A stretch of 64,000 nt of DNA, taken from the sequence record NC_103192.1. One strand, given 5' to 3'. Source of the stretch: a phage. The position numbers and the translations under genes are program-made. Below are positions 6,973 through 38,158 of the stretch, in pieces (position 1 is the first letter of the stretch; each line of letters starts with the position of its first letter). The notes beneath the pieces are model-generated. The model was not told the DNA's origin. It made no database searches and was given only the letters and a program-made list of their open reading frames with translations.

Positions 6973-7001
6973 TTGCTTTTGATGTATCTTTGTGGTAAAA
7001 T
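6973..7001 (+). promoter_or_regulatory. promoter TTGCTT-17-TGgTAAAAT
   Basis: -35 at 6973-6978, extended -10 at 6993-7001. Confidence 0.5.
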
Positions 7002-7019
7002 ACATTAGTGAGGGATATA

Positions 7020-7478
7020 ATGCTAAAGGTTAAATGTCAAACAAGGTTCAACCTAAAGCGTTTAGATCGCTTCTACAAAGAACTTGTGAGACTTGAAAGT
7101 AAAATAATAACCTACGGCTTTTATGATGAACCTCACCCGTCAGGCTTAAATATGGCAACATTGGCAGCTATTCACAACTTCGGTTGGAACGGGCTGCCTG
7201 TTCGCAATTTCATGGAGACGGCCTTTGCATTTCACAGCACGCAACTACAGACCTTGACAGAAAAATTGTTGAGAGCTATGGCTAGAGGATCAAGTGCAGA
7301 GGCTGTTCTTAGGCAGATGGGGGACACAGGGGCCAAAGCTATCCAGTTTGTTATTGAGGCTGGTCAGTTTAGTAACCCTACTGTTAGTGAGCAGTGGGCA
7401 CAAGAGAAGGGCTTCAACGAGGCTATGCGGCATTACGATGTGCTGCTTGAATCTGCAACCTTTAAAATTGGACAGTAA
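7020..7478 (+). CDS. putative neck / head-closure protein
   Basis: ATG 7020 with GAGGG RBS; synteny only. Confidence 0.35.
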   Translation: MLKVKCQTRFNLKRLDRFYKELVRLESKIITYGFYDEPHPSGLNMATLAAIHNFGWNGLPVRNFMETAFAFHSTQLQTLTEKLLRAMARGSSAEAVLRQMGDTGAKAIQFVIEAGQFSNPTVSEQWAQEKGFNEAMRHYDVLLESATFKIGQ

Positions 7479-7497
7479 AAAATAAGGGGGTGGTTGA

Positions 7498-7923
7498 GTG
7501 GCAGCAGGTTATAAGCTGATAGGAAAGAACAGGCTAATACCTCGTAAAACATTCAAAGGTCGCCACAGAGTGTATAACAAAACAGTTGGCAGTCCTTTTG
7601 CTAACGAGGGGTTAGAACTTGAGTATGAAGAGTTTGATGTCTTAGAGTGTGTTGTGCAGCCGTTGACAGGAAGAGCAGCTAAAGATTACTCCTCCCAGAT
7701 AAATCCTGAGGGTGACAGACAGTACGAGGCTTTTACAGTTTACTCCTCAACCAAGTTGTATAGTCCGGACGAAGGAACATATGCAATGGCTGACCAAATT
7801 CAGCTGCCTGACATCCGTGGTGACTTGAAATGGTTTACCGTTTTAAAATGCGATGCATATGTTACCTCTGGTGGTGGGAGATATAGATTTTTTGTGGTAG
7901 AAGAGCCTGAAGGAGAAAACTGA
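7498..7923 (+). CDS. putative tail completion / neck protein
   Basis: 141 aa, GTG start with AAGGGGG RBS; synteny only. Confidence 0.35.
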   Translation: MAAGYKLIGKNRLIPRKTFKGRHRVYNKTVGSPFANEGLELEYEEFDVLECVVQPLTGRAAKDYSSQINPEGDRQYEAFTVYSSTKLYSPDEGTYAMADQIQLPDIRGDLKWFTVLKCDAYVTSGGGRYRFFVVEEPEGEN

Positions 7924-8474
7924 TGGAAGCTTTCGAAAAAGTTTTTTCTGATCTTGAAACAACCATTGCTAAGCTCGTCAAGGTTGCCACAGGAAGAACT
8001 GTAGTTCTGGCAGAAAGCTCTACCATACCGAAGCCGGAAGGTGAGTTTGTACTTTTACAAACCTTGGCGATCAATCCCACCACTTGGGAAGATAATGAGT
8101 TTCAAGATGCGGAGGGTAATGCTTACGTCACCCACAGCTACACTGTTACCTATCTGCTAACAGCCTATCGTGGCAGGGCATATGCTGCACTTAGCAGAGT
8201 ATTGCAAGCAATAAACCTTCCAATGTTTTATGATAAGTATTTCCCTCTGGGATCGTGCTTTGCCTACTCTAACAATTCAACAATCTCACCTCAAAGAGTG
8301 CCGTTGAATAAGCAGACGTATGAAAATAGAGCCACTGTGATGCTGACATTTAACGTAAGGTTTGTTGAAACAGACATTGGGGCTTTTGAGGATCTTGAGG
8401 GAATTAAGGCTGAAATAACCACACACTTCCCTTCACCCAATTCTGGTAAAGCGGTTACAGACAGTGGTCAGTAA
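7923..8474 (+). CDS. putative tail completion / sheath-stabilising protein
   Basis: 183 aa, ATG overlaps previous stop (TGATG), AAGGAG RBS; synteny only. Confidence 0.35.
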   Translation: MEAFEKVFSDLETTIAKLVKVATGRTVVLAESSTIPKPEGEFVLLQTLAINPTTWEDNEFQDAEGNAYVTHSYTVTYLLTAYRGRAYAALSRVLQAINLPMFYDKYFPLGSCFAYSNNSTISPQRVPLNKQTYENRATVMLTFNVRFVETDIGAFEDLEGIKAEITTHFPSPNSGKAVTDSGQ

Positions 8475-8484
8475 TCGTTATAAT
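8455..8484 (+). promoter_or_regulatory. candidate promoter TTACAG-18-TATAAT
   Basis: consensus -10 TATAAT at 8479-8484; weak -35. Confidence 0.35.
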
Positions 8485-8489
8485 TGTGT

Positions 8490-8506
8490 AGTGTAATGAT
8501 TACACT
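8490..8506 (+). promoter_or_regulatory. 17-bp palindrome AGTGTAAT-G-ATTACACT (candidate operator)
   Basis: perfect 8-bp inverted arms around one central base, starting 6 nt after the TATAAT. Confidence 0.3.
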
Positions 8507-8546
8507 GCGTGTTTGATATCCGTGCACAGATATTAAGAGGAAACAA

Positions 8547-9923: not shown

Positions 9924-9933
9924 GGAAGCCTAG

Positions 9934-10407
9934 ATGGAAACTCAAATTTTAACTCCTTATGCGTATGACCCTAAAAAGGTCAAACTGTATCTGATGCAGC
10001 AGCGTGTCACTGGCTTCGCTGCTGACACCAAGATTGTTGTTTCAAGAAACGAAGACAACATCTACCCTCATGTTGGTGTGGATGGCGAAATGTCTGCAGC
10101 CCTGTCTCGTAACCAATCTGGTGTTATGACTGTGTCTTTGCAGAACACTTCTGTATGGAACGCTTACCTTTCTGACTGGCAGAAACAGGCATCTATTACT
10201 GGTCTGGTATTCTTCCCGGTTCTACTGGAAGGTAGCCAGGGTCCTGGTATTGCTACAATCGGTTGGATCCAGAAACAGCCTGACCTGACTTACGGAACTG
10301 AAGTAGGTCAACTGGACTGGGATATCGGTATTCTGGATGCATGGCTCAACCGTGACAACATCACTGGTGCTCTCACTGGCCTCGCAGGTCTTGCAGGTAT
10401 TATCTAA
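9934..10407 (+). CDS. putative tail tube protein
   Basis: 157 aa, position between sheath-like gene and chaperones; followed by strong terminator. Confidence 0.5.
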   Translation: METQILTPYAYDPKKVKLYLMQQRVTGFAADTKIVVSRNEDNIYPHVGVDGEMSAALSRNQSGVMTVSLQNTSVWNAYLSDWQKQASITGLVFFPVLLEGSQGPGIATIGWIQKQPDLTYGTEVGQLDWDIGILDAWLNRDNITGALTGLAGLAGII

Positions 10408-10423
10408 GAGCACACCATAGCAT

Positions 10424-10456
10424 AGGCCTCACCTTCGGGTGGGGCTTTTTGCTTTT
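10424..10456 (+). terminator. rho-independent terminator with UUCG tetraloop
   Basis: stem GCCTCACC/GGTGGGGC (one G-U pair), loop TTCG, then TTTTTGCTTTT. Confidence 0.75.
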
Positions 10457-10462
10457 AGGGTT

Positions 10463-10496: not shown

Positions 10497-10512
10497 AAAG
10501 GAGGAGACAGTC

Positions 10513-12135
10513 ATGGCTAAATTGAGTGCAGAAAGGTTTATCGAAAAAGCTCGTAGGGTTCACGGAGATAAGTACGACTATTCTCTTATAGAATACAAAA
10601 CATGCAAAGATAAGATAGAAATAGTCTGCAATACCTGTGGTAACCACTTCAACCAGACACCGGATAACCATATAAATCTAAAAAGAGGGTGCCCTGTTTG
10701 TGGAGCTGAGAGATCTGCAAAATCAAGAAAGGGTAAGAAATTCCCCCATGAGCGTGGTAACAGGTGCACTACAGAAGAGTGGATCAAGAAGGTACTAAAA
10801 AGATACCCTGAAAATGCTGAAAAGTATGATTATAGTCATGTAGTGTACAAGACCTCTGGAGATAAGGTTGAGATTCATTGCAAAATGTGCGGAAGAATAA
10901 TGCACCAGAAACCTAGCAAGCATTTATCAGGGCAAGGATGCAAGACTTGCGCAGCAAGATCTGTTTCTGCGAAAAAAGTTCCTAGCTTCCAAGAAATAGT
11001 TGAGAGATGTGTAGAAGTGCATGGTAGTGATTATGAGTATTTTGAAGACTCTTATGTGAACACCTCAACACCTATGATGATGCGCCACAAAGAGTGTGGG
11101 AATATCTTCATGCAGCGTCCTGAATTCCATTACGGGAAAGGACAAGGATGCCCTCGTTGCTGTCGAAATCAGTCTAATGGTGAGAAAGAGCTCCTGACGT
11201 TCATTAAAAGTGTGTATAGCGGCGATATTGAAGAGAACGTGCGTATTCTGGACAACTTTAAGGATCCTTCCAAGAAAAAGATGGAGCTGGACATTTATGT
11301 TCCGGAGCTTAAGCTTGCTGTGGAATATAATGGTGCCTACTGGCACTCTGTAGACAGTAAGGGGAAATGGTACCACATCCTGAAAAGGAAGGCCTGTGAA
11401 AAACAAGGTATTCGCATGTTGTCTATCTGGGATTGTGATTGGCAGGATGCTCGGAAAAGACCTATCATTGAGAGATATCTCAAGAATGCTTTAGGAGTCA
11501 AAGACGAGAAGACCGTCTATGCCAGAAAGTGCACAGTTAAAGATGTGGACAATAAAACTTACCGTGACTTTATGGAGAAAAACCACATTCAAGGGTATGC
11601 CCCCGCCAAGGAAGTGAAGAAGGGTCTGTTTACATCTGACGGCGAACTGGTAGCTTGTATGAGTTTTAAAATACTGAAAAACAGAGATCAAAAGGTAACC
11701 CCTTTCGTTATGTGGGATATGGTAAGGTATGCAACAAGCTGTAACGTTCCCGGTGGGCGTAGTAAGCTGTTTAAGCATATCCGAGAAGAGTTTAAGATGG
11801 ATCATGTTCAATCCTTCCTTGACAGAGATTACTTCACAGGCGTGTCCTATAAGGAGGATGGCTGGATTTTGGCAGAGGACGATCAGGTGTCTACTAGCTT
11901 CTGGAGCTACCGTGGTGGCAGAATGCCGAGGCAGGCGTGGTGGAAGTCAAACATCCCAGAGACACTGAAGCATCTCGGGTTGGACGAGTCCTTATACGAT
12001 CCTGAGAAAACACAAGAGTGGAATGCCAAAAATGCAGGCTGCTATATCCTTGAAAACAGTGGCAACTCCCGCTTTGAATGGCACAGCGATGAAGGTAAAA
12101 ATGATCCTGCATACTTGGATTGGTTGAAAGGTTAA
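10513..12135 (+). CDS. free-standing homing-endonuclease-like protein
   Basis: 540 aa; three N-terminal repeats each with paired CxxC motifs (CNTCGN...GCPVCG; CKMCGR...GCKTC; HKECGN...GCPRCC); central ELDIYVPELKLAVEYNGAYWHS resembles a PD-(D/E)xK (Vsr-like) nuclease core; own promoter and terminator. Confidence 0.5.
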   Translation: MAKLSAERFIEKARRVHGDKYDYSLIEYKTCKDKIEIVCNTCGNHFNQTPDNHINLKRGCPVCGAERSAKSRKGKKFPHERGNRCTTEEWIKKVLKRYPENAEKYDYSHVVYKTSGDKVEIHCKMCGRIMHQKPSKHLSGQGCKTCAARSVSAKKVPSFQEIVERCVEVHGSDYEYFEDSYVNTSTPMMMRHKECGNIFMQRPEFHYGKGQGCPRCCRNQSNGEKELLTFIKSVYSGDIEENVRILDNFKDPSKKKMELDIYVPELKLAVEYNGAYWHSVDSKGKWYHILKRKACEKQGIRMLSIWDCDWQDARKRPIIERYLKNALGVKDEKTVYARKCTVKDVDNKTYRDFMEKNHIQGYAPAKEVKKGLFTSDGELVACMSFKILKNRDQKVTPFVMWDMVRYATSCNVPGGRSKLFKHIREEFKMDHVQSFLDRDYFTGVSYKEDGWILAEDDQVSTSFWSYRGGRMPRQAWWKSNIPETLKHLGLDESLYDPEKTQEWNAKNAGCYILENSGNSRFEWHSDEGKNDPAYLDWLKG

Positions 12136-12136
12136 A

Positions 12137-12165
12137 TTGACAATGCACTATAATCATGGTAAAAT
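12137..12165 (+). promoter_or_regulatory. promoter TTGACA-17-TGgTAAAAT
   Basis: consensus -35 at 12137-12142, extended -10 at 12157-12165. Confidence 0.6.
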
Positions 12166-12942: not shown

Positions 12943-12947
12943 TCTAA

Positions 12948-12985
12948 GGGCCGGATTCCTTTTCTGGGATCTGGCCCTTTTTATT
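12948..12985 (+). terminator. stem-loop with U-tract between chaperone and tape measure genes (possible attenuator)
   Basis: GGGCCGGAU/AUCUGGCCC 9-bp stem (one G-U), 12-nt loop, then TTTTTATT. Confidence 0.4.
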
Positions 12986-12996
12986 ATGAGGAAACC

Positions 12997-15344: not shown

Positions 15345-15368
15345 GGGGGCTCTGGCCCCCCTTTACTT
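15345..15368 (+). terminator. hairpin GGGGGC-TCTG-GCCCCC with weak U-tract
   Basis: 6-bp GC stem read from sequence. Confidence 0.45.
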
Positions 15369-15376
15369 CATCAGTG

Positions 15377-15405
15377 TTGTAAAAACGGCTATTTTATGAT
15401 ACAAT
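15377..15405 (+). promoter_or_regulatory. promoter TTGTAA-17-TGaTACAAT
   Basis: -35 at 15377-15382, extended -10 at 15397-15405. Confidence 0.5.
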
Positions 15406-22397: not shown

Positions 22398-22400
22398 CAT

Positions 22401-22424
22401 AGGGGGCTGTTTGCCCCCTTTTCA
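22401..22424 (+). terminator. hairpin AGGGGGC-TGTTT-GCCCCCT + TTTT
   Basis: 7-bp stem read from sequence. Confidence 0.55.
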
Positions 22425-22433
22425 GGAGAAAGA

Positions 22434-26249: not shown

Positions 26250-26256
26250 CTGTTTT

Positions 26257-26286
26257 GCCCTCGCTTCGGCGGGGGCTTTTTGTTTG
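26257..26286 (+). terminator. rho-independent terminator with UUCG tetraloop
   Basis: GCCCTCGC-TTCG-GCGGGGGC then TTTTTGTTTG; shares 13-mer CGCTTCGGCGGGG with the terminators at 31768 and 58128. Confidence 0.75.
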
Positions 26287-26288
26287 TA

Positions 26289-26317
26289 TTGCGTATTAAC
26301 TTAAAATCTGGTAAAAT
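26289..26317 (+). promoter_or_regulatory. promoter TTGCGT-17-TGgTAAAAT
   Basis: -35 at 26289-26294, extended -10 at 26309-26317. Confidence 0.55.
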
Positions 26318-26348
26318 AACTATCATGATTGTTTAACCTGGAGGCACA

Positions 26349-26939
26349 ATGTTTTTATGGGAAAGGCCTAGATACCTTCCGGATATTAGATTGGAGCTGC
26401 TGGCAGATATTGTTACGTTTAAAAGTCCGTTTACAGGTAAAACGCAAAAAGTAACCTATGCCACACCTAATTGGAAAGGCACTTTGACGGTCTCTAATAT
26501 TAGCGAGTCACAGTTACTAGAGCTTAAGAGCTTTGTTGATCAGGTGTATAAAGATGGAAACATCTTTCTTATTAAAACTTACGGTCACTCAGTAACAGCT
26601 AATGAGCCAATCGCCCTTGGGCCTACTGGTAACGACGATTTTTTGAAGACGGTTGGGTGGGAGCCGAACAGAGACATAGCCAGAGCTGGGGATAAAATAT
26701 CTGTCAATGATGAGTTGAAAGTGGTAACAGCTCCAGTACGCAGCGATGGTGTGGGGGCTGCTGTTATAAGCATATCTCCAAGACTTAGAAAACCTATTGC
26801 CGCAGGGGATACTATGAAGATAATAACTCAATCTCCGAAGGGCAGGTTTCATATCAGGGATATTTATAAAATTAAGCAAAAAGTCGATGCTATGCAAAAA
26901 GGTGATAATATAGTTATCAACTTCTTTGAGGATTTCTAA
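26349..26939 (+). CDS. hypothetical tail tip protein
   Basis: 196 aa, GGAGG RBS; first gene of a four-gene block ending with the J-like protein. Confidence 0.4.
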   Translation: MFLWERPRYLPDIRLELLADIVTFKSPFTGKTQKVTYATPNWKGTLTVSNISESQLLELKSFVDQVYKDGNIFLIKTYGHSVTANEPIALGPTGNDDFLKTVGWEPNRDIARAGDKISVNDELKVVTAPVRSDGVGAAVISISPRLRKPIAAGDTMKIITQSPKGRFHIRDIYKIKQKVDAMQKGDNIVINFFEDF

Positions 26940-26940
26940 G

Positions 26941-27492
26941 ATGATTAGAGCGCCATTAGATAATTTATTTCTTGAAAAGCTGGAGCTTGATGGTGTTGAG
27001 ATCTTAATTGCTGCAAAGTTGGAGCTACCGACAGGAACTGTCAGGGTGTGTTCAGGAACCGGTGTTGTAGTAATTGAGGGGCAACATTTTATAGGGATAG
27101 GTGGATCAGCAACATTAACTGCTGTGTCTGAGAAAGATGCCACCAACTTCGGATCTGTGGTAGCGACATTGAACGGGTTTGATCCTAAGTATGTGGGTGA
27201 TCTACTGAAGACGGAGTATTCTGGTTGTCGTGCCACGTTGTACATTACCGCTATGGAGAATGGTCTGCCTGTTACAACCAATGGCTTGTTTGACGGCCTT
27301 ATAACAGATATGGCTATTCAGACAGGTGAGAATAGTGCTTTGTCCATATCCATCTCTTCCATCTTCAACAGTTGGTTAAGAGGTTTTCCTTATCGGTACA
27401 CGGAGGAAAGCCACAGCTCAAGAAACGATAATGACAGATTTTTTAAATATGTGGATCAGGTGGCGAGCCGCCCGATCATTTGGGAGGTTTAA
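26941..27492 (+). CDS. hypothetical tail tip protein
   Basis: ATG 26941 with GAGGA RBS (track start 26926 is TTG). Confidence 0.4.
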   Translation: MIRAPLDNLFLEKLELDGVEILIAAKLELPTGTVRVCSGTGVVVIEGQHFIGIGGSATLTAVSEKDATNFGSVVATLNGFDPKYVGDLLKTEYSGCRATLYITAMENGLPVTTNGLFDGLITDMAIQTGENSALSISISSIFNSWLRGFPYRYTEESHSSRNDNDRFFKYVDQVASRPIIWEV

Positions 27493-27917
27493 TGAGCACA
27501 CGCCCTCGTTTAGTGGATTGGCAAGAAAGATTGTGGAAAGTGTTTGACGAAGAGGCCACCATACCTTTTGAATGGGGATTCCACGATTGCTGCACCTTTG
27601 CAGCTAAGTGTGTTGATGCCCAATACGGAACAGATTTTCTTTCTAACTTCGAAGGAACGTATAAAACAGAGTTGGAAAGCAAAAGATGGTGCATGCTCCG
27701 TTTCAAAACCACACACCTGCCTACTATTTTTGATCTCTTTATGACTCGACTAGATACTCCTAAACAGGTTCAGCGTGGCGATATTGTTATCTTCGAGGGT
27801 CTGAACGGGCTCACCGCTGGTGTGTTCTGGAACAACCAGATTTGGGCGAAAGGTGATAAAGGGGTCTTTATGTTCGATATGAAAGATTCTATCGTTGTTG
27901 ATGTCTGGAGGTATTAA
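27492..27917 (+). CDS. NlpC/P60-like tail protein (gpK-like)
   Basis: 141 aa; Cys motif WGFHDCCTFAAKC and later GDIVIF...G resemble the papain-like NlpC/P60 catalytic core; ATG 27492 with GGGAGG RBS. Confidence 0.45.
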   Translation: MSTRPRLVDWQERLWKVFDEEATIPFEWGFHDCCTFAAKCVDAQYGTDFLSNFEGTYKTELESKRWCMLRFKTTHLPTIFDLFMTRLDTPKQVQRGDIVIFEGLNGLTAGVFWNNQIWAKGDKGVFMFDMKDSIVVDVWRY

Positions 27918-30900
27918 TGCCAATTGCAATGATTGATAACATCGTTGCTTCTGCAAGATCTTCAAGTTATGACTGGAACGCATCCAAGGCAGCTCTGGCT
28001 GACAGCCTGAACACTGTTACCACCAGAACTCTGGATAAGATTTTCGAAGGAAACAAATCTTACAGGAGTCAGCAAGATAGACAAAAACTTCTCAGATCTT
28101 CTGCTGCACCTTGCTCTGTAGTGTATGGGAAGACACGCACATCTGGGTTGCTTGCGTTTTTGGAGCAGGACAGGGACAGAACCCTTCATTGTGCTATTGT
28201 TCTTGCCAATCATCCCTTGGAAGGTATAGAAGATATACTTATCGACGGTAATCCTATTTCTTCGTATGGCGATTTGGTATCGTGGGAGTTACATACCGAC
28301 AGGAAAACCTCTGATCCTTTCATGGGCACACACTGCCCTTCATGGTCACCAGACATGATAGGCAGAGGGATCAGTTGGCTACGTGCCAGCTTCAAGTTTG
28401 ACCCTAACAAGTTTCCTTTTGGGTTGCCAAACGTTACACTTGTCAAGGTTGGTAAAAAATGCTATGATCCTCGTATCAGTAAAGAGGTGTATACCAATAA
28501 CGCGGCCTTGGTGATCCTAGACTATTTAAGAACGTACCTCAAATGTCCTGACGAAACCATTAACTGGGAGTCCTTCAAGGAGGCTGCCAACATATGCGAC
28601 GAGGCGGTAAAAAACGCTGACGGAACCAGTGAGCGACGTTACACCATTAACGGTGAGTTTGACATGGATGAGGCCCCAGCAAGCATTATGGCAGAAATGC
28701 TGAAAGCTTGTGGTGCAGATCTCAGCTATGTAGCTGGTAAGTATGGTTTGCTGGTTGGTGCATACTATGGCCCGGCAACAATGACACTGAGTGAGGATTG
28801 TGTCTGTGGTGAGGTCAAGATCTATCCGGAAGCCTCATTTGACAAAAGATCCAACACAATAACTGGCAGATTCACCAGTCCTACCAAAGGGTATTCTGAA
28901 ACAGATTTTCCATCAGTGTTTGTCCCAGAGTGGATAGAGAAGGATGGAGAAAGAAAGATAATCGATATAGACTATCGCTTTGTTACCAGCCCTTATCAAG
29001 CTCAGCGTGTTTCTGCAATCTTCTTAAGACGTGCCAGAGCTGGCAGGATTATTGAAGTCACCTGCAATATGCGAGGTTTTAAATTTAAGCCTGGCCGTTA
29101 TGTTACAATGGACCTCCCAAGTATTGGTATAGTGGGCCAAGAAATGAGGGTTCTTGAATGGGAGTTTACCAAAAAGGGTGGTGTCAAGGTAAAACTCCGT
29201 CAAGATGCTAAAGAGTGGAATGATGCCACAGGGCAACTTCCGGATTCTGGCGATGTAGATATTCCGATATCTCCATCTGGTGTAGCTCAACCGCAAAACT
29301 TCAGATATTCCGTTCTCCAAGCTGGAGAAGTAACTCACGGTGTTTTGGCTTGGGACAACGTTGGGACCTACGCTCAAAATATTGTGCAGGTAAGAAAGAA
29401 CGGAGAGATTGTTTGGACAGCACAAACAGTTGAGCAGTTTGTCCGAGTAGAAGGCTTGACCAAAGGGTCATACACAGCAACCGTGGTTGCAACATCTTAT
29501 AAAGGTGGCGTATCTCCGGAAGCATATTGTGAGTTCAACATTCAGGCACCTGAAGCTCCTGTTTCTGTAGAGGTTAAGCAAGGATACTTTGCTATCACCT
29601 TGATTCCGCATAGTAGGGATTTAGCAAGTGTTAGCACTCAGTACGACTTTTGGACATCTGGGATGACAAGATTGCCAGATACCAGTGATGCAACCGTTAC
29701 TTCAAAAGCCACCCGCATGGGTGTTGGTTCAACTTGGACATCTGAAGGTCTGCAGAACGATAAGATTTATTATTGGTATATTCGAACCACAAATGCTTTT
29801 GGTAGTTCTCAGTTTGTAGAGTGTGCTGCACGCTGCTATACCTCCATTGAAGATTTGATGCCTCAGATAGATGCTGAATTTAAAAAGACAGAAACTTATA
29901 AAGAGTTGATGAGCACTTTAGATTCCTCTATTGAAGAGGTTGAAAATCGTGTCACAGAACTTAACAAGTACATGGACGGAAGGGTAGATGAGGCATTCCA
30001 ACAACTTGGGGATAGGATAGGTGCTGTAGTTACAGAGACAACTCAGAAGTTTGAGGATGTCAATGGCAATATTACAGCGCTGGATAAGAAACTTGTTGCT
30101 GCACAGAACAAGTTCACCAACGATCTGAACACTGAAAGTGGAAGACTGGCATCCCTGATTGAGACAACCAATAAAGCAACCACTGATCTTCTGAACAAAA
30201 AGACAGAGGCTTTAGACGAGAAATTGGTTGCAGCCAAAGGGGAGTTGGTAGAACAAATAGGTGGAGTGGAGAGCGGATACCTTGCCGGAGATAAAACTCT
30301 GGATGGCAAGATCAATACCCAGAGAACAGAACTTGACGCAAGCATCTTGAGCACCAATAAGGCGACAGTGGATCTTCTTAACAGGACCTCTGAAACTCTG
30401 GATCAAAAGATCAGTCAGACAAACGCGACGGTATCTAAGAACTATACCACCCTTGACGGTAAGATAACTACCGCAAAAACTGATCTCAATACCTTGATTG
30501 CCAATACCAACAAGGCTACCACAGATTTGTTGAATCAGAAAACCTCTGCACTGTCAGAGCAGATAACTTCTGCACGTGGGGAGATTTCTACCAACAAACA
30601 GGCGATTAAGGATTTGGATGGGAAGCTGACCTCCACAAAAACAGCACTGGACGCTACAATCTCCGATACCAACAAAGCAACTGTGGATCTTATTAACGGC
30701 ACAGCGTCAGCTATTCGTCAAGAACTTGCTGTTGCTAAGCAGGAGATCATTAATGATGTTGGGGATGTATCAGAGCTAAGAGCTGCAGTGGCTACAACAT
30801 CTAAGGCTGTGACCGACTTAGAGGGCAAAGTAAATGCTCAATGGGGCACAAAAATACAGGTAGACTCCGCAGGGAATAAGTATGTGGCAGGTATCCAATT

Positions 30901-31756
30901 GGGCATGGAAGGCTCTGGAGGCCAAGTTCAATCATACTTCATGGTTAGTGCAAACAACTTTGCGGTATACAACCCCGGAAATGGAACAGCAACCCTTGCT
31001 TTCGCAATCAAGAACAACCAAGCGTTCTTGAAAGATGCTTTTATAGAGAACGGGACGATCTCTTCTGCCAAGATTGCACAAGAAATTTCGTCAAACAACT
31101 ACGATGGCAACGGGTACCATAAATACGGTCGGTATATTAACAAGAACGGGCACGCCCAGTTTATGGATGTGTGGGTGAAAGGTAATATCAACGCTAGTGC
31201 AGGTAACTTCACAGGGGCAGTTAACGCCACCAGTGGTACCTTCCGTGGAGATGTTTATGCCAATAATGGTAGCTTTAGAGGCACCATAGATGCAACAGGA
31301 GGTACATTCCGTGGACGTGTAGAAGCTTCCGTTATCCGTGCTAACCAGTTCGAAGGTGCAATCGTTGCACATAGGACCTATGGTGACTGCCCTCCGGTAT
31401 ATAACTCGCAGCAGAGGGTTTGCCGTTGGAGGTGGAGATATGTGGACAACGTGCAAGGCCAAGGTAAAAACGTAACATTCTTCTTTAAACTGAACGGTAC
31501 TCGTGCCAACTCTCAACTAAATGCGTGGATAGCTGGTCACCAATTACTTGCTGGCAAGAAGTACGGAAACGATAACGATGGCATGTGTGCAGTTGGGATA
31601 ACAGGTCTAGGTGAACAAACTATAGACATTATTATCGAGATTTACACACCATGGTCAACAGGGAACGTGACAGGCATTACAATATCTTGTCCTACAGTCG
31701 TTGTAAGTCGTTCTAACTCAAGTTTCCAAGGTCCTTGGAATGAGTCTCACGACTAA
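27917..31756 (+). CDS. lambda-J-like central tail fibre / host specificity protein (Phage-tail_3 domain)
   Basis: 1279 aa; N-terminal region (SVVYGKTRTSGLLAFLE...LHCAIVLANHPLEGIEDILIDGNPI...GRYVTMDLPSIGIVGQEMRVLEWEF) matches the gpJ-type domain pattern; central tandem coiled-coil repeats; Gly-rich C-terminus. Confidence 0.65.
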   Translation: MPIAMIDNIVASARSSSYDWNASKAALADSLNTVTTRTLDKIFEGNKSYRSQQDRQKLLRSSAAPCSVVYGKTRTSGLLAFLEQDRDRTLHCAIVLANHPLEGIEDILIDGNPISSYGDLVSWELHTDRKTSDPFMGTHCPSWSPDMIGRGISWLRASFKFDPNKFPFGLPNVTLVKVGKKCYDPRISKEVYTNNAALVILDYLRTYLKCPDETINWESFKEAANICDEAVKNADGTSERRYTINGEFDMDEAPASIMAEMLKACGADLSYVAGKYGLLVGAYYGPATMTLSEDCVCGEVKIYPEASFDKRSNTITGRFTSPTKGYSETDFPSVFVPEWIEKDGERKIIDIDYRFVTSPYQAQRVSAIFLRRARAGRIIEVTCNMRGFKFKPGRYVTMDLPSIGIVGQEMRVLEWEFTKKGGVKVKLRQDAKEWNDATGQLPDSGDVDIPISPSGVAQPQNFRYSVLQAGEVTHGVLAWDNVGTYAQNIVQVRKNGEIVWTAQTVEQFVRVEGLTKGSYTATVVATSYKGGVSPEAYCEFNIQAPEAPVSVEVKQGYFAITLIPHSRDLASVSTQYDFWTSGMTRLPDTSDATVTSKATRMGVGSTWTSEGLQNDKIYYWYIRTTNAFGSSQFVECAARCYTSIEDLMPQIDAEFKKTETYKELMSTLDSSIEEVENRVTELNKYMDGRVDEAFQQLGDRIGAVVTETTQKFEDVNGNITALDKKLVAAQNKFTNDLNTESGRLASLIETTNKATTDLLNKKTEALDEKLVAAKGELVEQIGGVESGYLAGDKTLDGKINTQRTELDASILSTNKATVDLLNRTSETLDQKISQTNATVSKNYTTLDGKITTAKTDLNTLIANTNKATTDLLNQKTSALSEQITSARGEISTNKQAIKDLDGKLTSTKTALDATISDTNKATVDLINGTASAIRQELAVAKQEIINDVGDVSELRAAVATTSKAVTDLEGKVNAQWGTKIQVDSAGNKYVAGIQLGMEGSGGQVQSYFMVSANNFAVYNPGNGTATLAFAIKNNQAFLKDAFIENGTISSAKIAQEISSNNYDGNGYHKYGRYINKNGHAQFMDVWVKGNINASAGNFTGAVNATSGTFRGDVYANNGSFRGTIDATGGTFRGRVEASVIRANQFEGAIVAHRTYGDCPPVYNSQQRVCRWRWRYVDNVQGQGKNVTFFFKLNGTRANSQLNAWIAGHQLLAGKKYGNDNDGMCAVGITGLGEQTIDIIIEIYTPWSTGNVTGITISCPTVVVSRSNSSFQGPWNESHD
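30064..30790 (+). repeat. tandem ~50-aa coiled-coil repeats inside the J-like gene
   Basis: repeated unit ...LDGKI.T.KT.L...I..TNKAT.DLLN... at least four times at protein level, with correspondingly similar DNA units. Confidence 0.5.
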
Positions 31757-31763
31757 CAGTAAA

Positions 31764-31790
31764 GCCCCGCTTCGGCGGGGTTTATTTTTA
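31764..31790 (+). terminator. rho-independent terminator with UUCG tetraloop
   Basis: GCCCCGC-TTCG-GCGGGG then TTTATTTTTA. Confidence 0.75.
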
Positions 31791-31798
31791 TGCTCAGA

Positions 31799-31827
31799 TT
31801 GACTATTGTTACAAAATTTGGTAAAAT
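31799..31827 (+). promoter_or_regulatory. promoter TTGACT-17-TGgTAAAAT
   Basis: -35 at 31799-31804, extended -10 at 31819-31827. Confidence 0.6.
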
Positions 31828-31860
31828 ACCTTGTAGAGATTTTCATACCGGAGGAGTGAC

Positions 31861-33351
31861 GTGGCTAAGTATGGATTGACAGAGGCTGGTTTCGTTATAC
31901 CAACCCTAAATGACCTAATCGTTGAAACTAAGCAAAGCCTGATCCGTGCTTTTGGCGAAAACTTCAACGTACAGAGTAACTCCGTTGCAGATAAGCTGAC
32001 CACTATCTTCAACGAGCGAGAGTATCAACTTATTCTTATGGCAGCATCTGTATACGCATCGCAGACGCTGTATGGGGCAGAAGGTATTTACCTGGATGAG
32101 CTTCTTGGAAGACAGGGTATTTACCGAAGAGGCCGTTCTAAATCATCAGGTACCTGCCAGTTGACAATCAACACAACTGTGCCGTACAATATGATTTATG
32201 ATTCCAAAACTTATACGCTGGACAGTGGCAACTTTGTTCTTAGCAACGATGTGCAAGTAGCAGGGAATCTTATTGCTCACAGAATAAATGCTCCAGACCT
32301 AAGGATTGGGAAATACAACTTTCAAATTACCAACCAGACAGATGGAAGCATCAAAACAAAAAGTCTGGTTTTAACCGATAAGTCTCTGGACTCTTCTGAT
32401 TTACCAAGCTTTTACGGCGAGATTAAGCAATTCATTGTAGATAATACAACCCTGTTGAACGACGATTTGATTCAGATCGATATGTTGACAGGAACGTTGT
32501 GGATAGGATACAATTCGAATCTTGATCAAGTTGGGCTTAATAGCAGAGTAGATTTCAGAGTATCCCCGATTGTAGGTGAAAGAACTATCACCCTAGATGT
32601 TATCGCTAACGAGGCTGGTGAGCTGTCAAGAGAGGCAGAAACCGTGACAACAATGTCGCCTACTCCCAGCGGATTTATCAAGCTTACCAACCGAGAAAGA
32701 TTCAATGAGGGCAGGGATGTTGAGAAGGACTCAGAGTATCGCTTAAGAGCTTCCAGCACTAAACAGTTGACATCTAAAGCTACCCGTCCTGCAATCCTTA
32801 GCGCTGTAAGCGAGGTGAAAGGTGTTGAGAAAGTAAGAGTGTTCTCTAACAACACCGATAAAACGGATGCGAAAGGTATACCACCTTATAAGTTTCAAGT
32901 GGTGGTGTTTGGTGGTGCAACAGAGGATATCTGTCAGGCGCTGTATCAAACCATAGCTTGCACAAACAGAACTTATGGGAATATCTTCTACGATATTACC
33001 ACATCAGACGGTCAAACTGAAAGGATTTATTACTCCAAGGCAAATACCTACCGCCTAGATGTAAGAATTACCTACTCAGGTGCTGCGCTTTCCACAACCG
33101 AAAAAGATGCCATTACAGAGGCTCTTTTGCAGGTTGTTAACGGCTTGGATGTTGCCGATACGTTGTACAATATCCAATTGGTCGGTGCTGCATCAGCTGC
33201 TGTGTCAATAGGCAGATTTAACAGACTGGTAATTCAAGTTAAACCTGTTGGAGCCTCTGATGAAGCTTACACTACAAACGATATTGTTGCGAACATGACC
33301 GAGGTGTTTGACCTCGATGAAAGTAATATAACTTTCCAACAAACTATTTAA
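31861..33351 (+). CDS. baseplate J-like protein (gp6/gpJ family)
   Basis: 496 aa, GTG start with GGAGGAG RBS; N-terminal pattern (...GFVIPTLNDLIVETK...GAEGIYLDELLGRQGIYRRG...) recalled as baseplate-J-like. Confidence 0.5.
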   Translation: MAKYGLTEAGFVIPTLNDLIVETKQSLIRAFGENFNVQSNSVADKLTTIFNEREYQLILMAASVYASQTLYGAEGIYLDELLGRQGIYRRGRSKSSGTCQLTINTTVPYNMIYDSKTYTLDSGNFVLSNDVQVAGNLIAHRINAPDLRIGKYNFQITNQTDGSIKTKSLVLTDKSLDSSDLPSFYGEIKQFIVDNTTLLNDDLIQIDMLTGTLWIGYNSNLDQVGLNSRVDFRVSPIVGERTITLDVIANEAGELSREAETVTTMSPTPSGFIKLTNRERFNEGRDVEKDSEYRLRASSTKQLTSKATRPAILSAVSEVKGVEKVRVFSNNTDKTDAKGIPPYKFQVVVFGGATEDICQALYQTIACTNRTYGNIFYDITTSDGQTERIYYSKANTYRLDVRITYSGAALSTTEKDAITEALLQVVNGLDVADTLYNIQLVGAASAAVSIGRFNRLVIQVKPVGASDEAYTTNDIVANMTEVFDLDESNITFQQTI

Positions 33352-33362
33352 GGCGGCGGGAT

Positions 33363-34049
33363 ATGGCAGAGATTAAGTCGGATGTTAACCACATCCACAC
33401 TCTGCCAGATTTTGTTCAGGGGGGTCTTGATTACCTCCCTGGGGATTTTCTGGCTGAGAAGGTTAATTTAGTCACATTCTTAACCGTATACCTTAAAAGG
33501 TTGGAGAATGTTGATAAAATGCTGGTAGGCTTGGCTGAAGGAAGATTGCTTAACAATGCCAGCGGGAGATACCTTGACGAAGTTGGTAATCAACTTGGTA
33601 TTCTTAGGAATGGTCTTTCAGACGCGGATTTTCGTGCTACGCTGATTATTCAGCAGGCAGCATCATCAAGAGGTGGTACTCGCGAAGATGTCATCTCCAC
33701 CTTGCGACAATTGTTCGGAAGAGACAATTTCGATACGTGGAAAGGTGACAACTTTAGATTTGACATAAATATTAGAAAAACTTGCTTCGACATATTACAG
33801 TCCATCGATCAGATCTTAGATATGCTGCCATTGCCTTGTCATTTGCGTCTTACAGAATCGCAAGGGCAAGCTTTTGGTTTTGAAGGAGACTCTACAGCTC
33901 TTGGCTTCGGATCAGTGTGGGAAGAAAACCAGTTCGGAGTTGGTGGGCTGGCTACTTTGCTGTATGTTCCTGACGTAAGACCTGATTGGGACACCACAAC
34001 TATTTATTGTGAAAGTATTACAGTAAACGCAACTAGACAGGAGGGTTAA
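33363..34049 (+). CDS. putative baseplate wedge protein (gpI-like)
   Basis: 228 aa, immediately downstream of the J-like baseplate gene; synteny only. Confidence 0.4.
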   Translation: MAEIKSDVNHIHTLPDFVQGGLDYLPGDFLAEKVNLVTFLTVYLKRLENVDKMLVGLAEGRLLNNASGRYLDEVGNQLGILRNGLSDADFRATLIIQQAASSRGGTREDVISTLRQLFGRDNFDTWKGDNFRFDINIRKTCFDILQSIDQILDMLPLPCHLRLTESQGQAFGFEGDSTALGFGSVWEENQFGVGGLATLLYVPDVRPDWDTTTIYCESITVNATRQEG

Positions 34050-36121
34050 TGGCAACAGCTGTTTTTAAACCTTACCGTGATTACTCTACGATGGCTGCAC
34101 GGTTTCATTACCGCACAGTTCAGGATACTGCAGTTCCAGGTAGGGATTATGATCATGTTGAGGGAGATGTAACTATCCCGGTTGGAGCAACCAGTATTGA
34201 GATCCCTGTAGAAATTGTTGACAAATTGCCAAACAGGTTGCCAAGAAGCTTCTTTATGGAGTTTTCATCAAACTCCCAAGGGGTTATGATTGGAACACAA
34301 AGAGCGAAATGTACAATAGTTTCAGATGAGAATCTTGACAGAATATCTTGGGATACCGTTGAGGAGAGAATGTTTCACCCAAGATATTGGGTTACAACCA
34401 CACAGCAGACTGAAAGCACCTGCATTGTTGCGGATAATAACTGCTGTATTAACCGTTTAGTGTCAAGAACATATGGAGGCATGGCTGGGTGCATTTGGGA
34501 AACAGTTGACAAGTATGACCATTTCGGCATTGGATTTGATGATCACTACGAGATGAGAAACACCAAGCTTTGGTTCAGAATGTCAATAACCAATGCCAGC
34601 AACTTCTCCACCCCTGAAAAGATGATTATGACTGTAGACCTTGTTGACGGCACAATCATCTATGTTCCTTTAGCTCAATATGCTGTCAGCATCTCAGAGG
34701 ATAAGAATGTTGCAGAAATTCATATTGATTTCGAGGACTGCGTCGGGATGGACCAGAACAACAATATGATGGGTGTTGATCCTCGGCAGGTGAGAAAGAT
34801 TTTAATACCGCTTATGCCTAAAGATTGGGTAAGTAATAGCACAGACCCAAGAACGGAAAATGTAGAGTGCGAGTTGCGTCTAGATCTGCTTCAGCCGGAC
34901 ACAGGCTGGAAAATGATGCAACTTAACAATATCCAGGTGAAAGAGCACGACGTCGGGATCTGCACAGCATATGACGATATGTGGAACGTATCCCCTTTAA
35001 GGGTGTTGAGCAATATCAAGCGTCTGGGCTATACCGGAACCATAAATCATTATGTTGGTATGAGTCATTATTATGACTACACATGGTCAGGAACCCAATG
35101 GTCTATAAACAAAACAGGGGCTCTAAACGCTGCAGCTTATAAATGGCATGATGATTTTATGTACAATGCCAAACGACATGACTTCGACGTTATGCAGTCT
35201 GTAAGCTTCGAGCTTTATAGCGATGCCTGTCCGTTGGAATGGACCCAGAGAGACTGGAACGATAACTACGCTAAAACAGGATATACACCTTGTAGCTACC
35301 TCCTGTCTCCAACCATTGAAGAGGGTATGAATTTCCTTACTGCAGTATTTAAGAATTTTGCATCAGCCGCTATGAGAAACAACCTGCCAGTGATTATGCA
35401 GGTTGGTGAACCGTGGTGGTGGTACAATACCGATACTCGTAGACCTTGTATTTATGATTACCCTACAAAGCAGGCGTTTTATGATGAGACAGGTGAGTAT
35501 GCATTAGATATTGGGACTATTGACGATCCTAAAACTGGTGGTGTTTACGACAAGTATGTAGCATTTTGTCGTGGTAAGCTTGGCGCTCGTATTGCGGCTA
35601 TTTCAAAGGCAATAAAAGCACACGCTGCATCGGCTCAGATGACAGCTTTACTGTTTTTCCCCACTATTATGGAAACCGAGCTTACGCAAAAACTGAACCT
35701 TGCTGACCAATATAAAAAGGAAGCAGGCGCTCTTGATTTCTTCTGCACTGAGTGCTACGATTGGGTGATGCAGGGAGGTATTGAAAAGGCAAAAGAGTCT
35801 GTAAACATACCTATCGTTAAGTTAGGTTGGAAACCGTCTGAAATACAATACCTTGCAGGGTTCGTTCCTAGCAAAGAGCTTGCTCCGGTATATGGCTACG
35901 ACCCAACCAGGAATTACCAAGAATTTTTATGGAGATGTATTTGCGGAAACATGGCAACCATAGAGTATAGATACCCTGAGGTAAAACAGTATGTGTGGGC
36001 ATACCCGCAAGTAATGTCTGACAGCATCACTGTTACCGCCAGAGATTCTACCGTGCTTCATATGGGACAGGTTGCTCTGAAAGGGTATGTAGAAGATGTT
36101 GTCCCGCCAGACTTCTCATAA
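34049..36121 (+). CDS. tail fibre/spike protein with N-terminal Calx-beta-like domain
   Basis: 690 aa; residues ~15-95 (FHYRTVQDTAVPGRDYDHVEGDVTIPVGATSIEIPVEIVDK) fit the Calx-beta pattern; Trp/Tyr-rich C-terminal body. Confidence 0.5.
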   Translation: MATAVFKPYRDYSTMAARFHYRTVQDTAVPGRDYDHVEGDVTIPVGATSIEIPVEIVDKLPNRLPRSFFMEFSSNSQGVMIGTQRAKCTIVSDENLDRISWDTVEERMFHPRYWVTTTQQTESTCIVADNNCCINRLVSRTYGGMAGCIWETVDKYDHFGIGFDDHYEMRNTKLWFRMSITNASNFSTPEKMIMTVDLVDGTIIYVPLAQYAVSISEDKNVAEIHIDFEDCVGMDQNNNMMGVDPRQVRKILIPLMPKDWVSNSTDPRTENVECELRLDLLQPDTGWKMMQLNNIQVKEHDVGICTAYDDMWNVSPLRVLSNIKRLGYTGTINHYVGMSHYYDYTWSGTQWSINKTGALNAAAYKWHDDFMYNAKRHDFDVMQSVSFELYSDACPLEWTQRDWNDNYAKTGYTPCSYLLSPTIEEGMNFLTAVFKNFASAAMRNNLPVIMQVGEPWWWYNTDTRRPCIYDYPTKQAFYDETGEYALDIGTIDDPKTGGVYDKYVAFCRGKLGARIAAISKAIKAHAASAQMTALLFFPTIMETELTQKLNLADQYKKEAGALDFFCTECYDWVMQGGIEKAKESVNIPIVKLGWKPSEIQYLAGFVPSKELAPVYGYDPTRNYQEFLWRCICGNMATIEYRYPEVKQYVWAYPQVMSDSITVTARDSTVLHMGQVALKGYVEDVVPPDFS

Positions 36122-36133
36122 TCAGGAGATAAA

Positions 36134-37174
36134 ATGTCAAAACCTAGTTTTCCATTAGAGATTTGGGCAGAGGAGGATCAGGTTCTGCCTAACACCCACA
36201 GACAGAACAGGCTACGCCCGATTGATGATTTGTGGAGAAAAGGTTGGGATCTTGGTCAAAAGCCATCCTGTGAAGAACTTAACTATATTTTCAATATGCT
36301 CGGGACTTGGGCAAAATACATTGCTGACGAGCAGATCCCCGCTCAAGAAGGCCGTTATCTGGTACGTGATAATAACTTGAGTGATCTTTTGAACATCCCT
36401 GTTGCCCGTAGAAACCTTGGTATTATTACTAAGGAAGAGGCAGACGCCAGGTATGTGAAAGTTGCAGGTGATACAATGACAGGCCCATTGGGTTTGCAAC
36501 GTATCAACTTTAAAGCTGCCGATACAGATAAGGCTTGGATAGAGACAACTATTGGCCCAGATAAGACAACCCTTGACTTTGGGTTAAGTGATAATATTGG
36601 GGCGTTCGATGATGGTGGCACATCTACAGTAGATGCGTTCCGTTGGAGATTCCAGCCAACTCAGCCGGACATTAACCCAGAGTTCACTCTGATGTACCTG
36701 AACGCAATCACGGCTAATCGTGCGTTGTTGAAAGTGGTGGGCAATGTTGAAGTTGTTGATAACATGCGATGTAATAACCTCACCATTAGCAGCACAGCAA
36801 CATTCACCAACTGCAATGTAGCTAGTCAGTTGACGGCTGGGTCAGTATATGTCAATGGTGGTGCAAGTTGTGACAGTATGGTTGTAAGAAGCCAGCATTG
36901 TGTTGTCGGTAACAGAAATGTGGTGCGCTCTGTGAATGGAGTGACGGCTAACGGCAACGGAGATGTAACGATCACCATCCCGCAGACAGGTGTACAGGAT
37001 ATCAGAATCGGTGCAAGACTTGTTGACGGTGTTTCTGAATCTCCGGTTCGCAACGGTTATGTTGTCACAGGTTGGCATTTTGGTGATAAAAAAGAGATGC
37101 GTGGTTCAACCTACTGGGCAGGACCTTTACAAAAACTTGTAAATGGTCAATGGATCACTGTTAATTATGCGTAG
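36134..37174 (+). CDS. tail fibre protein, paralogue A
   Basis: 346 aa; contains GDTMTGPL fibre motif; ends ...YWAGPLQKLVNGQWITVNYA; paralogous along its whole length to the 38189 gene product. Confidence 0.6.
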   Translation: MSKPSFPLEIWAEEDQVLPNTHRQNRLRPIDDLWRKGWDLGQKPSCEELNYIFNMLGTWAKYIADEQIPAQEGRYLVRDNNLSDLLNIPVARRNLGIITKEEADARYVKVAGDTMTGPLGLQRINFKAADTDKAWIETTIGPDKTTLDFGLSDNIGAFDDGGTSTVDAFRWRFQPTQPDINPEFTLMYLNAITANRALLKVVGNVEVVDNMRCNNLTISSTATFTNCNVASQLTAGSVYVNGGASCDSMVVRSQHCVVGNRNVVRSVNGVTANGNGDVTITIPQTGVQDIRIGARLVDGVSESPVRNGYVVTGWHFGDKKEMRGSTYWAGPLQKLVNGQWITVNYA

Positions 37175-37188
37175 ATCGGAGGACTAGC

Positions 37189-37773
37189 ATGAAAATACTT
37201 CAAGAGTTTAAACTTTACCAGCCGGGATCTGGCGAATACTACACCAACAAGGAGACCAAGGAGCTGACTCCTCAGGAGGTTGAGGATTACACAGCATACA
37301 CTGGATATTTTTTACGTAATGATGATGGCGATTGGTATGTGCAATCACGAACACTGCGACAAGAAAATCCAGGCTGTATCTTCCTACTTGTTGACGAGAA
37401 GGGTATTCTTAAGACATCTACAGAAGAACCTGATGCCTTGTGGCCTGCTCCAGGTCTTCGTGTGGTTATCGCCAAAAAAGAAGAGGTACCAGAAAACATT
37501 ATGCTCCACCACGACGCTTTGCGTTTAGTTGGTGATGAATTTGTCACAGACAATGAATTCTTTGTTCAACAGGCAGAGGGTGTCATAGAGACAGAACTTG
37601 CTTGGGCTACTGCTAGAATTGGTGCCTATCAAGACATGATTGACCTTGAATACGATCTTACTGATGACCAAAAACGCAACATCAGAGATTTGAAAATGTA
37701 CAGGGTAAAACTTCTTGAAATAGATACATCTAAAGCCCCTGACATTTTCTTCCCGGAACGACCTACCCTCTAA
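37189..37773 (+). CDS. tail fibre assembly chaperone (Tfa-like)
   Basis: 194 aa; C-terminal ...AWATARIGAYQDMIDLEYDLTDDQKRNIRDLKMYRVKLLEIDTSKAPDIFFPERP fits the conserved Tfa C-terminal pattern. Confidence 0.55.
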   Translation: MKILQEFKLYQPGSGEYYTNKETKELTPQEVEDYTAYTGYFLRNDDGDWYVQSRTLRQENPGCIFLLVDEKGILKTSTEEPDALWPAPGLRVVIAKKEEVPENIMLHHDALRLVGDEFVTDNEFFVQQAEGVIETELAWATARIGAYQDMIDLEYDLTDDQKRNIRDLKMYRVKLLEIDTSKAPDIFFPERPTL

Positions 37774-37784
37774 GAGGAGGTGTT

Positions 37785-38099
37785 GTGGAGTTGGATTTGG
37801 CGGCATTGTACGGTATCTGCATGGGTACCGTTGTCCCGATCTGTGTATGGGCTTTCAACCAGTGGCACACCAAATGGAAAGGCATTTCCAAGAGGTTGGA
37901 TGAACTGGAGAAAGACCTCATCTTAGTGAAAAACAGTATGGTTACAAAAGATAAACTTGATTCCGTTATAGAGACCCGGTTAAGCAAGCTAGAGGCCGAT
38001 ATTAACGACCTTAAGCAGGATGTCAGGACAGATGTCTCCGGTATCCGAGCCGATGTACAAAAGATTTTGCACATGCTCGTAGAGCATAGTAAAAGGTAA
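37785..38099 (+). CDS. small membrane-anchored coiled-coil protein (spanin-like?)
   Basis: 104 aa; N-terminal hydrophobic helix then heptad-like region; GTG start 4 nt after GAGGAGG. Confidence 0.4.
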   Translation: MELDLAALYGICMGTVVPICVWAFNQWHTKWKGISKRLDELEKDLILVKNSMVTKDKLDSVIETRLSKLEADINDLKQDVRTDVSGIRADVQKILHMLVEHSKR

Positions 38100-38108
38100 A
38101 CAAAGGTC

Positions 38109-38141
38109 AGAACGGAAAGGACTCCGTTCTTGCATTTTGTT
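38109..38141 (+). terminator. hairpin AGAACGGA-AAGGAC-TCCGTTCT + TGCATTTTGTT
   Basis: 8-bp stem; U-tract overlaps the next promoter's -35. Confidence 0.5.
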
Positions 38142-38158
38142 CCCTAAAGTGTTAAAAT
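38130..38158 (+). promoter_or_regulatory. promoter TTGCAT-17-TGtTAAAAT
   Basis: -35 at 38130-38135, extended -10 at 38150-38158. Confidence 0.55.

Follow-up and report, generated by a model that had tools for sequence, protein, structure and literature searches.

Predicted sigma-70 extended -10 promoters and intrinsic terminators in the structural gene block of an Escherichia coli Vequintavirus

A stretch of 64,000 nucleotides of the phage genome NC_103192.1 (hereafter the window, whose coordinates are used throughout) contains a block of structural genes that is punctuated by short promoter-like motifs and GC-rich hairpins. Eight of these motifs probably represent sigma-70 promoters of the extended -10 type, from which the host holoenzyme would drive structural genes, and the hairpins would be ordinary intrinsic terminators that, together with the promoters, partition the block into nested transcription units. 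The promoter class is described by the consensus TTGnWWWW-N9-TRTGnTAAAATA. The window belongs to a Vequintavirus, a phage of Escherichia coli: it is about 94% identical to the type phage rV5, and its positions 20000-40000 (20 kb) match approximately 120 Escherichia phages of this genus (rV5-like myoviruses) at about 93-94% nucleotide identity. According to the gene order of the annotated relative EduardKellenberger, the structural block occupies positions 1-47000 on the plus strand, where it starts with the last part of the large terminase gene and extends to the gene of a giant Ig-like fibre, and the early and metabolic genes are found at 47000-54000 on the minus strand and at 54000-64000 on the plus strand.

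The layout itself is not new. In rV5, 20 Rho-independent terminators and 33 promoters of the sigma-70 type were reported, 11 of the promoters having an extended -10 region (Kropinski et al., 2013; PMC3606486). Table S4 of that paper contains the promoters P064, P056, P051, P048, P040, P036 and P030, which correspond to window positions 790, 6973, 12137, 15377, 26289, 31799 and 38130, as well as terminators that correspond to hairpins of the window and are named with them below; the RefSeq record NC_011041 carries P51 and several terminators as regulatory features. Therefore, the core finding, comprising all but one of the eight promoters and the majority of the terminators, had already been published as a prediction in 2013, and no new kind of element is revealed here. 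The elements shared with rV5 lie at matching positions and have the same motif, TggTAaAAtA. The differences are a homing endonuclease gene that separates t052 from P051 in the window phage, and the site at 2465 and the terminator at 31762, which have no entry in the rV5 list. One intragenic entry of that list, P055 (TGGTAGAAG), is probably a false positive. The additions of the present analysis are the conservation of the promoters and of the terminator-promoter pairs across the subfamily, the assignment of the motif to a promoter class, and the homing endonuclease insertion that splits one such pair. The checked transcription-unit map of the structural block is of use in the annotation of rV5-like phages, a group widely used in therapy and typing, and in the engineering of their tail-fibre modules. 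The motif is subfamily-wide and, by its sequence, of the sigma-70 extended -10 rather than the T4-like late type, which narrows the question of how the structural genes are timed.

Predicted promoters of the structural genes

All eight sites follow the composite pattern TTG-N17-TGnTAnAAT. A search for TTG-N17-TGNTANAAT returned exactly eight matches in the window, as compared with 0.28 expected and a maximum of two in 100 shuffles, and all the sites are located on the plus strand, in gaps between structural genes, 12-64 nt upstream of start codons. The shorter element TGNTAAAAT was found 11 times, exclusively on the plus strand (3.6 +/- 2.0 in shuffles), and with a trailing A (TGNTAAAATA) seven times (0.86 expected). 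A chance origin of the motifs was ruled out by the shuffle controls. The motif search by which the first-pass annotation of this DNA had proposed to check its promoter layout was thus positive in the window, as it was in the complete genome of a relative (see below).

In order along the block, the promoters precede the genes of the portal protein (790..818; TTGCCA-17-TAGAAT), the prohead protease (2465..2493; TTGCAA-17-TAAAAT), a neck or tail-completion protein (6973..7001; TTGCTT-17-TAAAAT), the tail assembly chaperone (12137..12165; TTGACA-17-TAAAAT), the tail-tube initiator (15377..15405; TTGTAA-17-TACAAT; near rV5 P048), the distal tail protein (26289..26317; TTGCGT-17-TAAAAT), the baseplate wedge (31799..31827; TTGACT-17-TAAAAT) and the second short tail fibre (38130..38158; TTGCAT-17-TAAAAT). 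The -10 hexamer is accordingly TAAAAT in six cases and TAGAAT and TACAAT in one case each, and it is preceded, one base upstream, by TG at -15/-14 in all eight. The -35 element begins with TTG at every site and is a complete TTGACA at only one of them, 12137, which matches 11 of 12 consensus positions in addition to the TG. The site at 6973 is the most conserved across genera. The gene behind 2465 was identified as a prohead protease by the Pfam family Peptidase_S78_2; a hairpin with a GCAA loop (2460-2479) covers the -35 region of this promoter, and a counterpart of the site is present in Mydovirus (L004:2312). Paralogous short tail fibres are encoded to the left and right of the promoter at 38130 (36134-37174 and 38186-39232), and their C-terminal ends form a 63-nt repeat (37111-37173 and 39169-39231, 78% identical), which suggests a duplicated fibre cassette.

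The first-pass annotation had described six of these sites, with 790 as a variant. All of its coordinates proved correct, although the site at 15377 reads TGATACAAT instead of the TGnTAAAAT assigned to it, and the eighth site, 2465, had been overlooked. Its assignment to the extended -10 class agrees with the features of all eight sites. Promoters of this class in E. coli have TG one base before TAnAAT, an enrichment of T and purine at -17/-16 and a partial -35 element (PMC3950348). These features are shared by the phage sites, the -35 element being partial or replaced by T-runs in some genera; the sites of the window differ from the class in that TTG at -35 is retained in all eight and A at -6 is nearly invariant.

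Hairpins and predicted terminators

Twelve hairpins were folded, with energies from -12.8 to -26.1 kcal/mol; nine of them gave z-scores of -3 or below (lowest -6.6), and the hairpin at 22402 was examined only in the fold of its entire gap. In a consensus scan for terminators, a U-rich tract after the stem was recognized in 11 hairpins, including those at 15345 and 38109, whose tracts pass the scan and are poor. Most of the hairpins are followed directly by 5-8 U within 8-10 nt. Stability, z-scores and U-tracts are therefore in keeping with intrinsic terminators, as the first-pass annotation had assumed, and the hairpins are taken here as predicted elements of this kind. An Rfam scan of the window gave no match.

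Particular weight had been given in that annotation to the UUCG tetraloop, which turned out to be one of several loop types: it occurs in only four of the 12 hairpins, and in one relative the loop at the 31768 site is UUAG. UUCG is among the commonest loops of E. coli terminators. The UUCG hairpins of the window have their short GC stem, stable loop and U-tract in common with terminators of this kind in enterobacteria and their phages, and nothing about them is distinctive. The 13-mer CGCTTCGGCGGGG, reported in three UUCG hairpins, is indeed present in three exact copies (26262, 31768 and 58128; 0.01 expected), each within a UUCG-loop hairpin followed by a T-run; joined by the hairpin at 10427, they constitute the top direct-repeat family of the window. 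The copy at 58128, however, lies outside the structural block and is followed by no promoter. A special role of the 13-mer was rejected, the three copies being similar short GC hairpins, one of which has no promoter after it. The same 13-mer is also present in a terminator of an outgroup phage, which could reflect either convergence or common descent.

The UUCG-loop terminators are the one after the tail tube gene (10424..10457; -20.6 kcal/mol; rV5 t052) and the three with the 13-mer, at 26257..26288 (hairpin 26257-26276; -16.9 kcal/mol, z -4.6; t041), at 31762..31795 (hairpin 31762-31783; -16.5 kcal/mol; absent from Table S4) and, in the early and metabolic region, at 58125..58152 (t003), all on the plus strand. 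Strong terminators on the same strand follow the major capsid protein gene (5381..5414; -24.8 kcal/mol; t060) and precede the tape measure gene (12946..12989; -26.1 kcal/mol, z -6.6; t050). A hairpin of the form GGGGGC-UGUUU-GCCCCC followed by UUUUC lies between two tail fibre genes (22402..22425, plus strand), another terminator precedes the giant Ig-like fibre gene (41271..41302, plus strand; -15.3 kcal/mol; t028), and a bidirectional terminator closes the structural block (46960..46992; t026/t027). Two plus-strand hairpins are weak. The one after the tape measure gene (15345..15370; z -1.4; t049) has a 6-bp GC stem, a UCUG loop and the poor U-tract CUUUACUUCA; at its counterparts in other genera the loop is UUCG and the U-tract is good. 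The other (38109..38142; -12.8 kcal/mol, z -2.7) has a 6-nt loop and the poor U-tract UGCAUUUUGU, and its 3' arm abuts the -35 element of promoter 38130.

The remaining hairpin, at 836-857 (836..866, plus strand; -14.2 kcal/mol, z -4.6; t064ABC), consists of an 8-bp stem and a 6-nt loop followed by UUUUGUUAU. It lies 3' of the promoter at 790, within its predicted leader, so that the order of hairpin and promoter is reversed at this site. The same promoter-then-hairpin order as at 790-866, with a different hairpin sequence, was observed in the terminase-portal gap of a phAPEC8-like outgroup phage (L012:1652-1752). Possible roles of this hairpin are those of a leader attenuator and of a 5' stabilizing stem-loop.

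The latter possibility belongs to a broader explanation, in which the hairpins are mainly elements of RNA stability or processing (3' barriers to exonucleases or protective 5' stem-loops) and transcription runs through them. The position of the 836-857 hairpin in a leader, found also in the outgroup, fits a 5' stabilizer better than a terminator, the U-tracts at 15345 and 38109 are poor, and genes that lie behind terminators without a following promoter still have to be expressed. Nevertheless, the 5-8 U after most of the stems are the hallmark of intrinsic terminators, and the element at 46960 is bidirectional and located where two gene blocks converge. As a general account of the hairpins this explanation is distinctly unlikely, although a terminator and an RNA-stability role can coexist in the same element.

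Arrangement of promoters and terminators

A terminator is directly followed by a promoter at three junctions (15345 to 15377, 26257 to 26289 and 31762 to 31799), and at a fourth, 38109/38130, the weak hairpin abuts the -35 element. The promoters at 6973 and 12137 have no hairpin upstream in the window, and no promoter follows the hairpins at 5381, 12946, 22402, 41271 and 836, the bidirectional terminator at 46960 or the early-region terminator at 58125. The order terminator then promoter thus applies to about half of the promoters and to less than half of the terminators.

One further pair was present in the ancestral layout. In EduardKellenberger and rV5, the counterpart of promoter 12137 is preceded at a distance of about 50 nt by that of the UUCG terminator 10424, which follows the tail tube gene. 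In the window these two elements are parted by a 1.65-kb insertion with a free-standing homing endonuclease gene (10513..12135, plus strand; PHROG 559, E 8.5e-112, also PHROG 3339), which is carried by approximately four of 117 relatives. Therefore, the ancestral layout had one UUCG terminator-promoter pair more than the window.

According to the sigma-70 reading, transcription would be started at the extended -10 promoters by the host sigma-70 holoenzyme, and the promoters and terminators would divide the 47-kb rightward block into nested units. Leaky terminators after genes whose products are presumably needed in bulk (capsid, tube, chaperone) may lower the flow of transcripts downstream, and internal promoters may restore it at approximately five junctions, one of which is the pair split by the homing endonuclease gene. 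Genes behind terminators without a following promoter must then depend on read-through. We infer the leakiness of the terminators, the setting of protein ratios and the late timing alike. In the first-pass annotation, several promoters had been placed directly after UUCG hairpins and every tail sub-module had been considered capable of re-initiation. The former holds for only two promoters (26257-26276 followed by 26289, and 31762-31783 followed by 31799), and the latter is conceivable at the five or so junctions just mentioned but does not extend to the hairpins that no promoter follows. The description of the whole as a late transcription map was also overstated, since its timing had been deduced from gene content only. 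The promoter at 12137 is so close to consensus that unmodified host polymerase should fire it, and a strict late timing is therefore doubtful.

Conservation within the genus and across the subfamily

In the aligned Vequintavirus relatives most promoter gaps have accumulated 0-3 changes per 80-130 nt, as compared with about 6% overall divergence of the compared region, and changes within the promoters are confined to the spacers. The complete genome of EduardKellenberger (MZ501061.1; about 93% identical over 20 kb) was scanned with the slightly relaxed pattern TT[G/T]-N17-TGnTAnAAT. Among the 11 matches, eight are located in the structural block, two elsewhere in sense orientation and one in antisense orientation, so that the structural block holds eight of the ten sense sites. 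The two additional sense sites lie at 73167 of that genome, before two hypothetical genes of the early region, and at 129802, before the tRNA cluster (rV5 P074).

The comparison was extended to the structural blocks of four other genera, represented by SSE121 (Seunavirus), VLCpiM5a (Mydovirus), UPEC06 (phi92-like) and POP17 (Certrevirus), whose sheath proteins are 52-60% identical to that of the window. TGnTAAAAT(A) occurs again in these genera, in the gaps at matching junctions, namely before the neck gene, the tail-tube initiator and the baseplate wedge. In every genus the promoters of the latter two junctions are immediately preceded by a GC hairpin with a T-run, and the hairpin before the tail-tube initiator has a UUCG loop in all four other genera. 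The stems vary (GGGGC/GCCCC, GGGAGCC/GCTCCC, CCCCGC/GCGGGG), and this difference between genera points to selection on structure rather than on sequence. In the more distant phAPEC8-like outgroup (sheath 27% identical) the tape-measure junction reads CCTCGCTTCGGCGGGG-T7, followed by TTGACA-N18-TACAAT with TG. When IMG/VR was searched for relatives of the baseplate junction, just three loci were obtained; their protein matches were near-identical (99%), and little diversity was added.

To describe the promoter class, 23 sites from five genera were chosen only by TGnTAnAAT and an intergenic position. The TG and the bases T (-12), A (-11) and T (-7) do not vary among them but belong to the selection pattern and are not independent evidence. 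In the unselected columns, T was found at -35 in 22 of 23 sites, at -34 in all 23 and at -17 in 16. Position -33 is G in 16 sites, -16 is a purine in 21 (giving, with the T at -17, the pattern TRTGn), -6 is A in 20, and -30 to -28 are A or T in every one of the 23. All of these counts are inflated by the fact that matching junctions in related genera are non-independent samples. The remaining bases at -33 are mostly T from a terminator T-run, and in the phi92-like phage and Certrevirus the whole -35 slot is TTTTTT or TTTTAA provided by such a run.

These columns bear on two explanations that invoke a phage factor. The first assumes T4-type late promoters that are specific to the phage, at which a phage sigma-like protein reads a -10-centred motif without a -35 element (TggTAaAAtA as compared with TATAAATA). 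The likeness to T4 late promoters was pointed out by the authors of the rV5 paper (PMC3606486), and several features sustain it: T4 late promoters (TATAAATA; gp55, gp33, gp45) are also A/T-rich, centred on -10 and located before structural genes, the motif is concentrated in the structural block, and AAATA at -10 to -6, with its frequent A at -6, agrees with the T4 late consensus. However, (G/A)TAAAATA matches TATAAATA (-13 to -6) at only five of eight positions. The difference falls on -13 to -11, where G/A-T-A stands instead of T-A-T, and T at -12 and A at -11, where T4 has A and T, are a signature of sigma-70. The TG at -15/-14 and TR at -17/-16 are contacts of sigma-70 region 3, and the TT(G) conserved exactly 17 bp upstream supplies the -35 element, so that both the TG and the -35 TTG set the window phage apart from T4. 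Moreover, homologues of gp33, gp45 and gp55 are reported to be absent from rV5 (PMC3606486), and PHROG scans of the small early proteins of the window gave no sigma-like match. The T4 late promoter was accordingly rejected as a model; recognition of this type is highly improbable, and the positional evidence favours plain recognition by sigma-70 over the likeness drawn for rV5.

The second explanation retains sigma-70 but adds a phage activator bound to the A/T stretch at -32 to -28, like MotA at T4 middle promoters. The A/T bases at -30 to -28 are present in every site and such a pattern is missing from the early TTGACA promoters, and at 6973 and its counterparts the sequence TTGCTTTTG resembles the MotA box TGCTTtA. 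This likeness is limited to the one junction, though, and there the box lies about 15 bp from the -10 hexamer. In T4 middle promoters the MotA box is located 12 +/- 1 bp from the -10 hexamer, a spacing that the site at 6973 does not fit. A MotA box, (a/t)3TGCTTtA, centred at -30 was therefore discarded as the common element. Homologues of MotA or AsiA are missing from the annotations of the relatives and were not found in the window, and A/T-rich spacers are common in A/T-rich intergenic gaps. Dependence on an activator of this kind is thus very unlikely.

A possible switch between promoter classes

Two classes of promoter can be distinguished in these phages. Outside the structural block the early promoters have the form aaaa-TTGACA-N17-TAnnnT, with a perfect -35 element and a variable -10 element, and inside the block a TG extension is combined with a weak -35 element. 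An example of the strong -35 class was observed at 53956-53998, where two early promoters stand back to back and divergent, TTGACA-17-TAAGAT on the minus strand and TTGACT-17-TATAGT on the plus strand (rV5 P010/P011). The TTGnWWWW-N9-TRTGnTAAAATA class might be the spared target of a switch operating across Vequintavirinae, in which an early phage protein disables recognition of the -35 element by sigma-70. This proposal is tentative and, on present evidence, unlikely. In the manner of AsiA or gp39, the putative protein would silence the TTGACA early promoters of the phage along with host promoters and spare those that depend on TG. It might also suppress termination, so that polymerase reads through the terminators placed just upstream of structural promoters; in some genera the terminator T-run doubles as the -35 element or the upstream part of the next promoter.

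As a route to late timing such a switch would be plausible. Precedents exist in T4 and in the Thermus phage P23-45, whose proteins AsiA and gp39, respectively, prevent recognition of the -35 element and leave extended -10 promoters unaffected (PMC3950348), gp39 also suppressing termination at intrinsic terminators (PMC3351154). As in the window phage, one genome combines -10/-35 promoters with extended -10 promoters before later genes. In these two systems a phage factor displaces sigma region 4, by which the first class is turned off and the second spared, whereas the corresponding switch in the window is conjectural, and their hosts and phage lineages are unrelated to those of the window phage.

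Pfam, PHROG and PDB scans of an Srd-like protein of the window and PHROG scans of 19 small early proteins revealed nothing similar to gp39 or AsiA, the small proteins matching only families of unknown function. The Srd-like protein is encoded at 52907-53959 on the minus strand, by the first gene of the leftward early operon, and has hits to PHROG 1400 (5.7e-12) and PHROG 4592 (2.6e-14); the match to the "Srd anti-sigma factor" or "decoy of host sigma70" annotation is weak and that to the "HNH endonuclease" family strong. Its counterparts in relatives carry the annotation anti-sigma factor, for which the evidence is thin. In T4, Srd is now associated with RNase E and not with sigma.

Several observations weigh against the assignment of the eight sites to plain sigma-70 extended -10 promoters of the structural genes, in addition to the inflated conservation counts noted above. 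Several of the promoters are near-consensus and might fire from the start of infection. Two features exceed the usual sigma-70 consensus and could mark an additional phage factor, namely the A/T run at -30 to -28 and the A at -6, which hardly varies; the sole candidate regulator in the window, the 52907-53959 protein, has no Pfam or PDB match. About one-third of the rV5 early promoters also carry TG (our count from Table S4 of PMC3606486), and the two classes therefore differ by degree, in the strength of the -35 element as against the extension of the -10 element, and not absolutely. Finally, literature searches retrieved no mapping of transcript 5' or 3' ends for any Vequintavirus.

Additional observations

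In GenBank, 18 records of the series MG0656xx bear the name "Campylobacter phage" and give Campylobacter jejuni as host. Their sequences share about 93% identity with this E. coli Vequintavirus, and the host label looks doubtful. Upstream of the sheath gene, three successive hairpins without U-tracts were found in SSE121 and UPEC06 (L002:8842-8970 and L003:8852-8962). The corresponding gap of the window (8475-8546) contains only a weak A/T-rich hairpin. The first of the three hairpins shows compensatory changes between SSE121 and UPEC06 and may be a structured leader.

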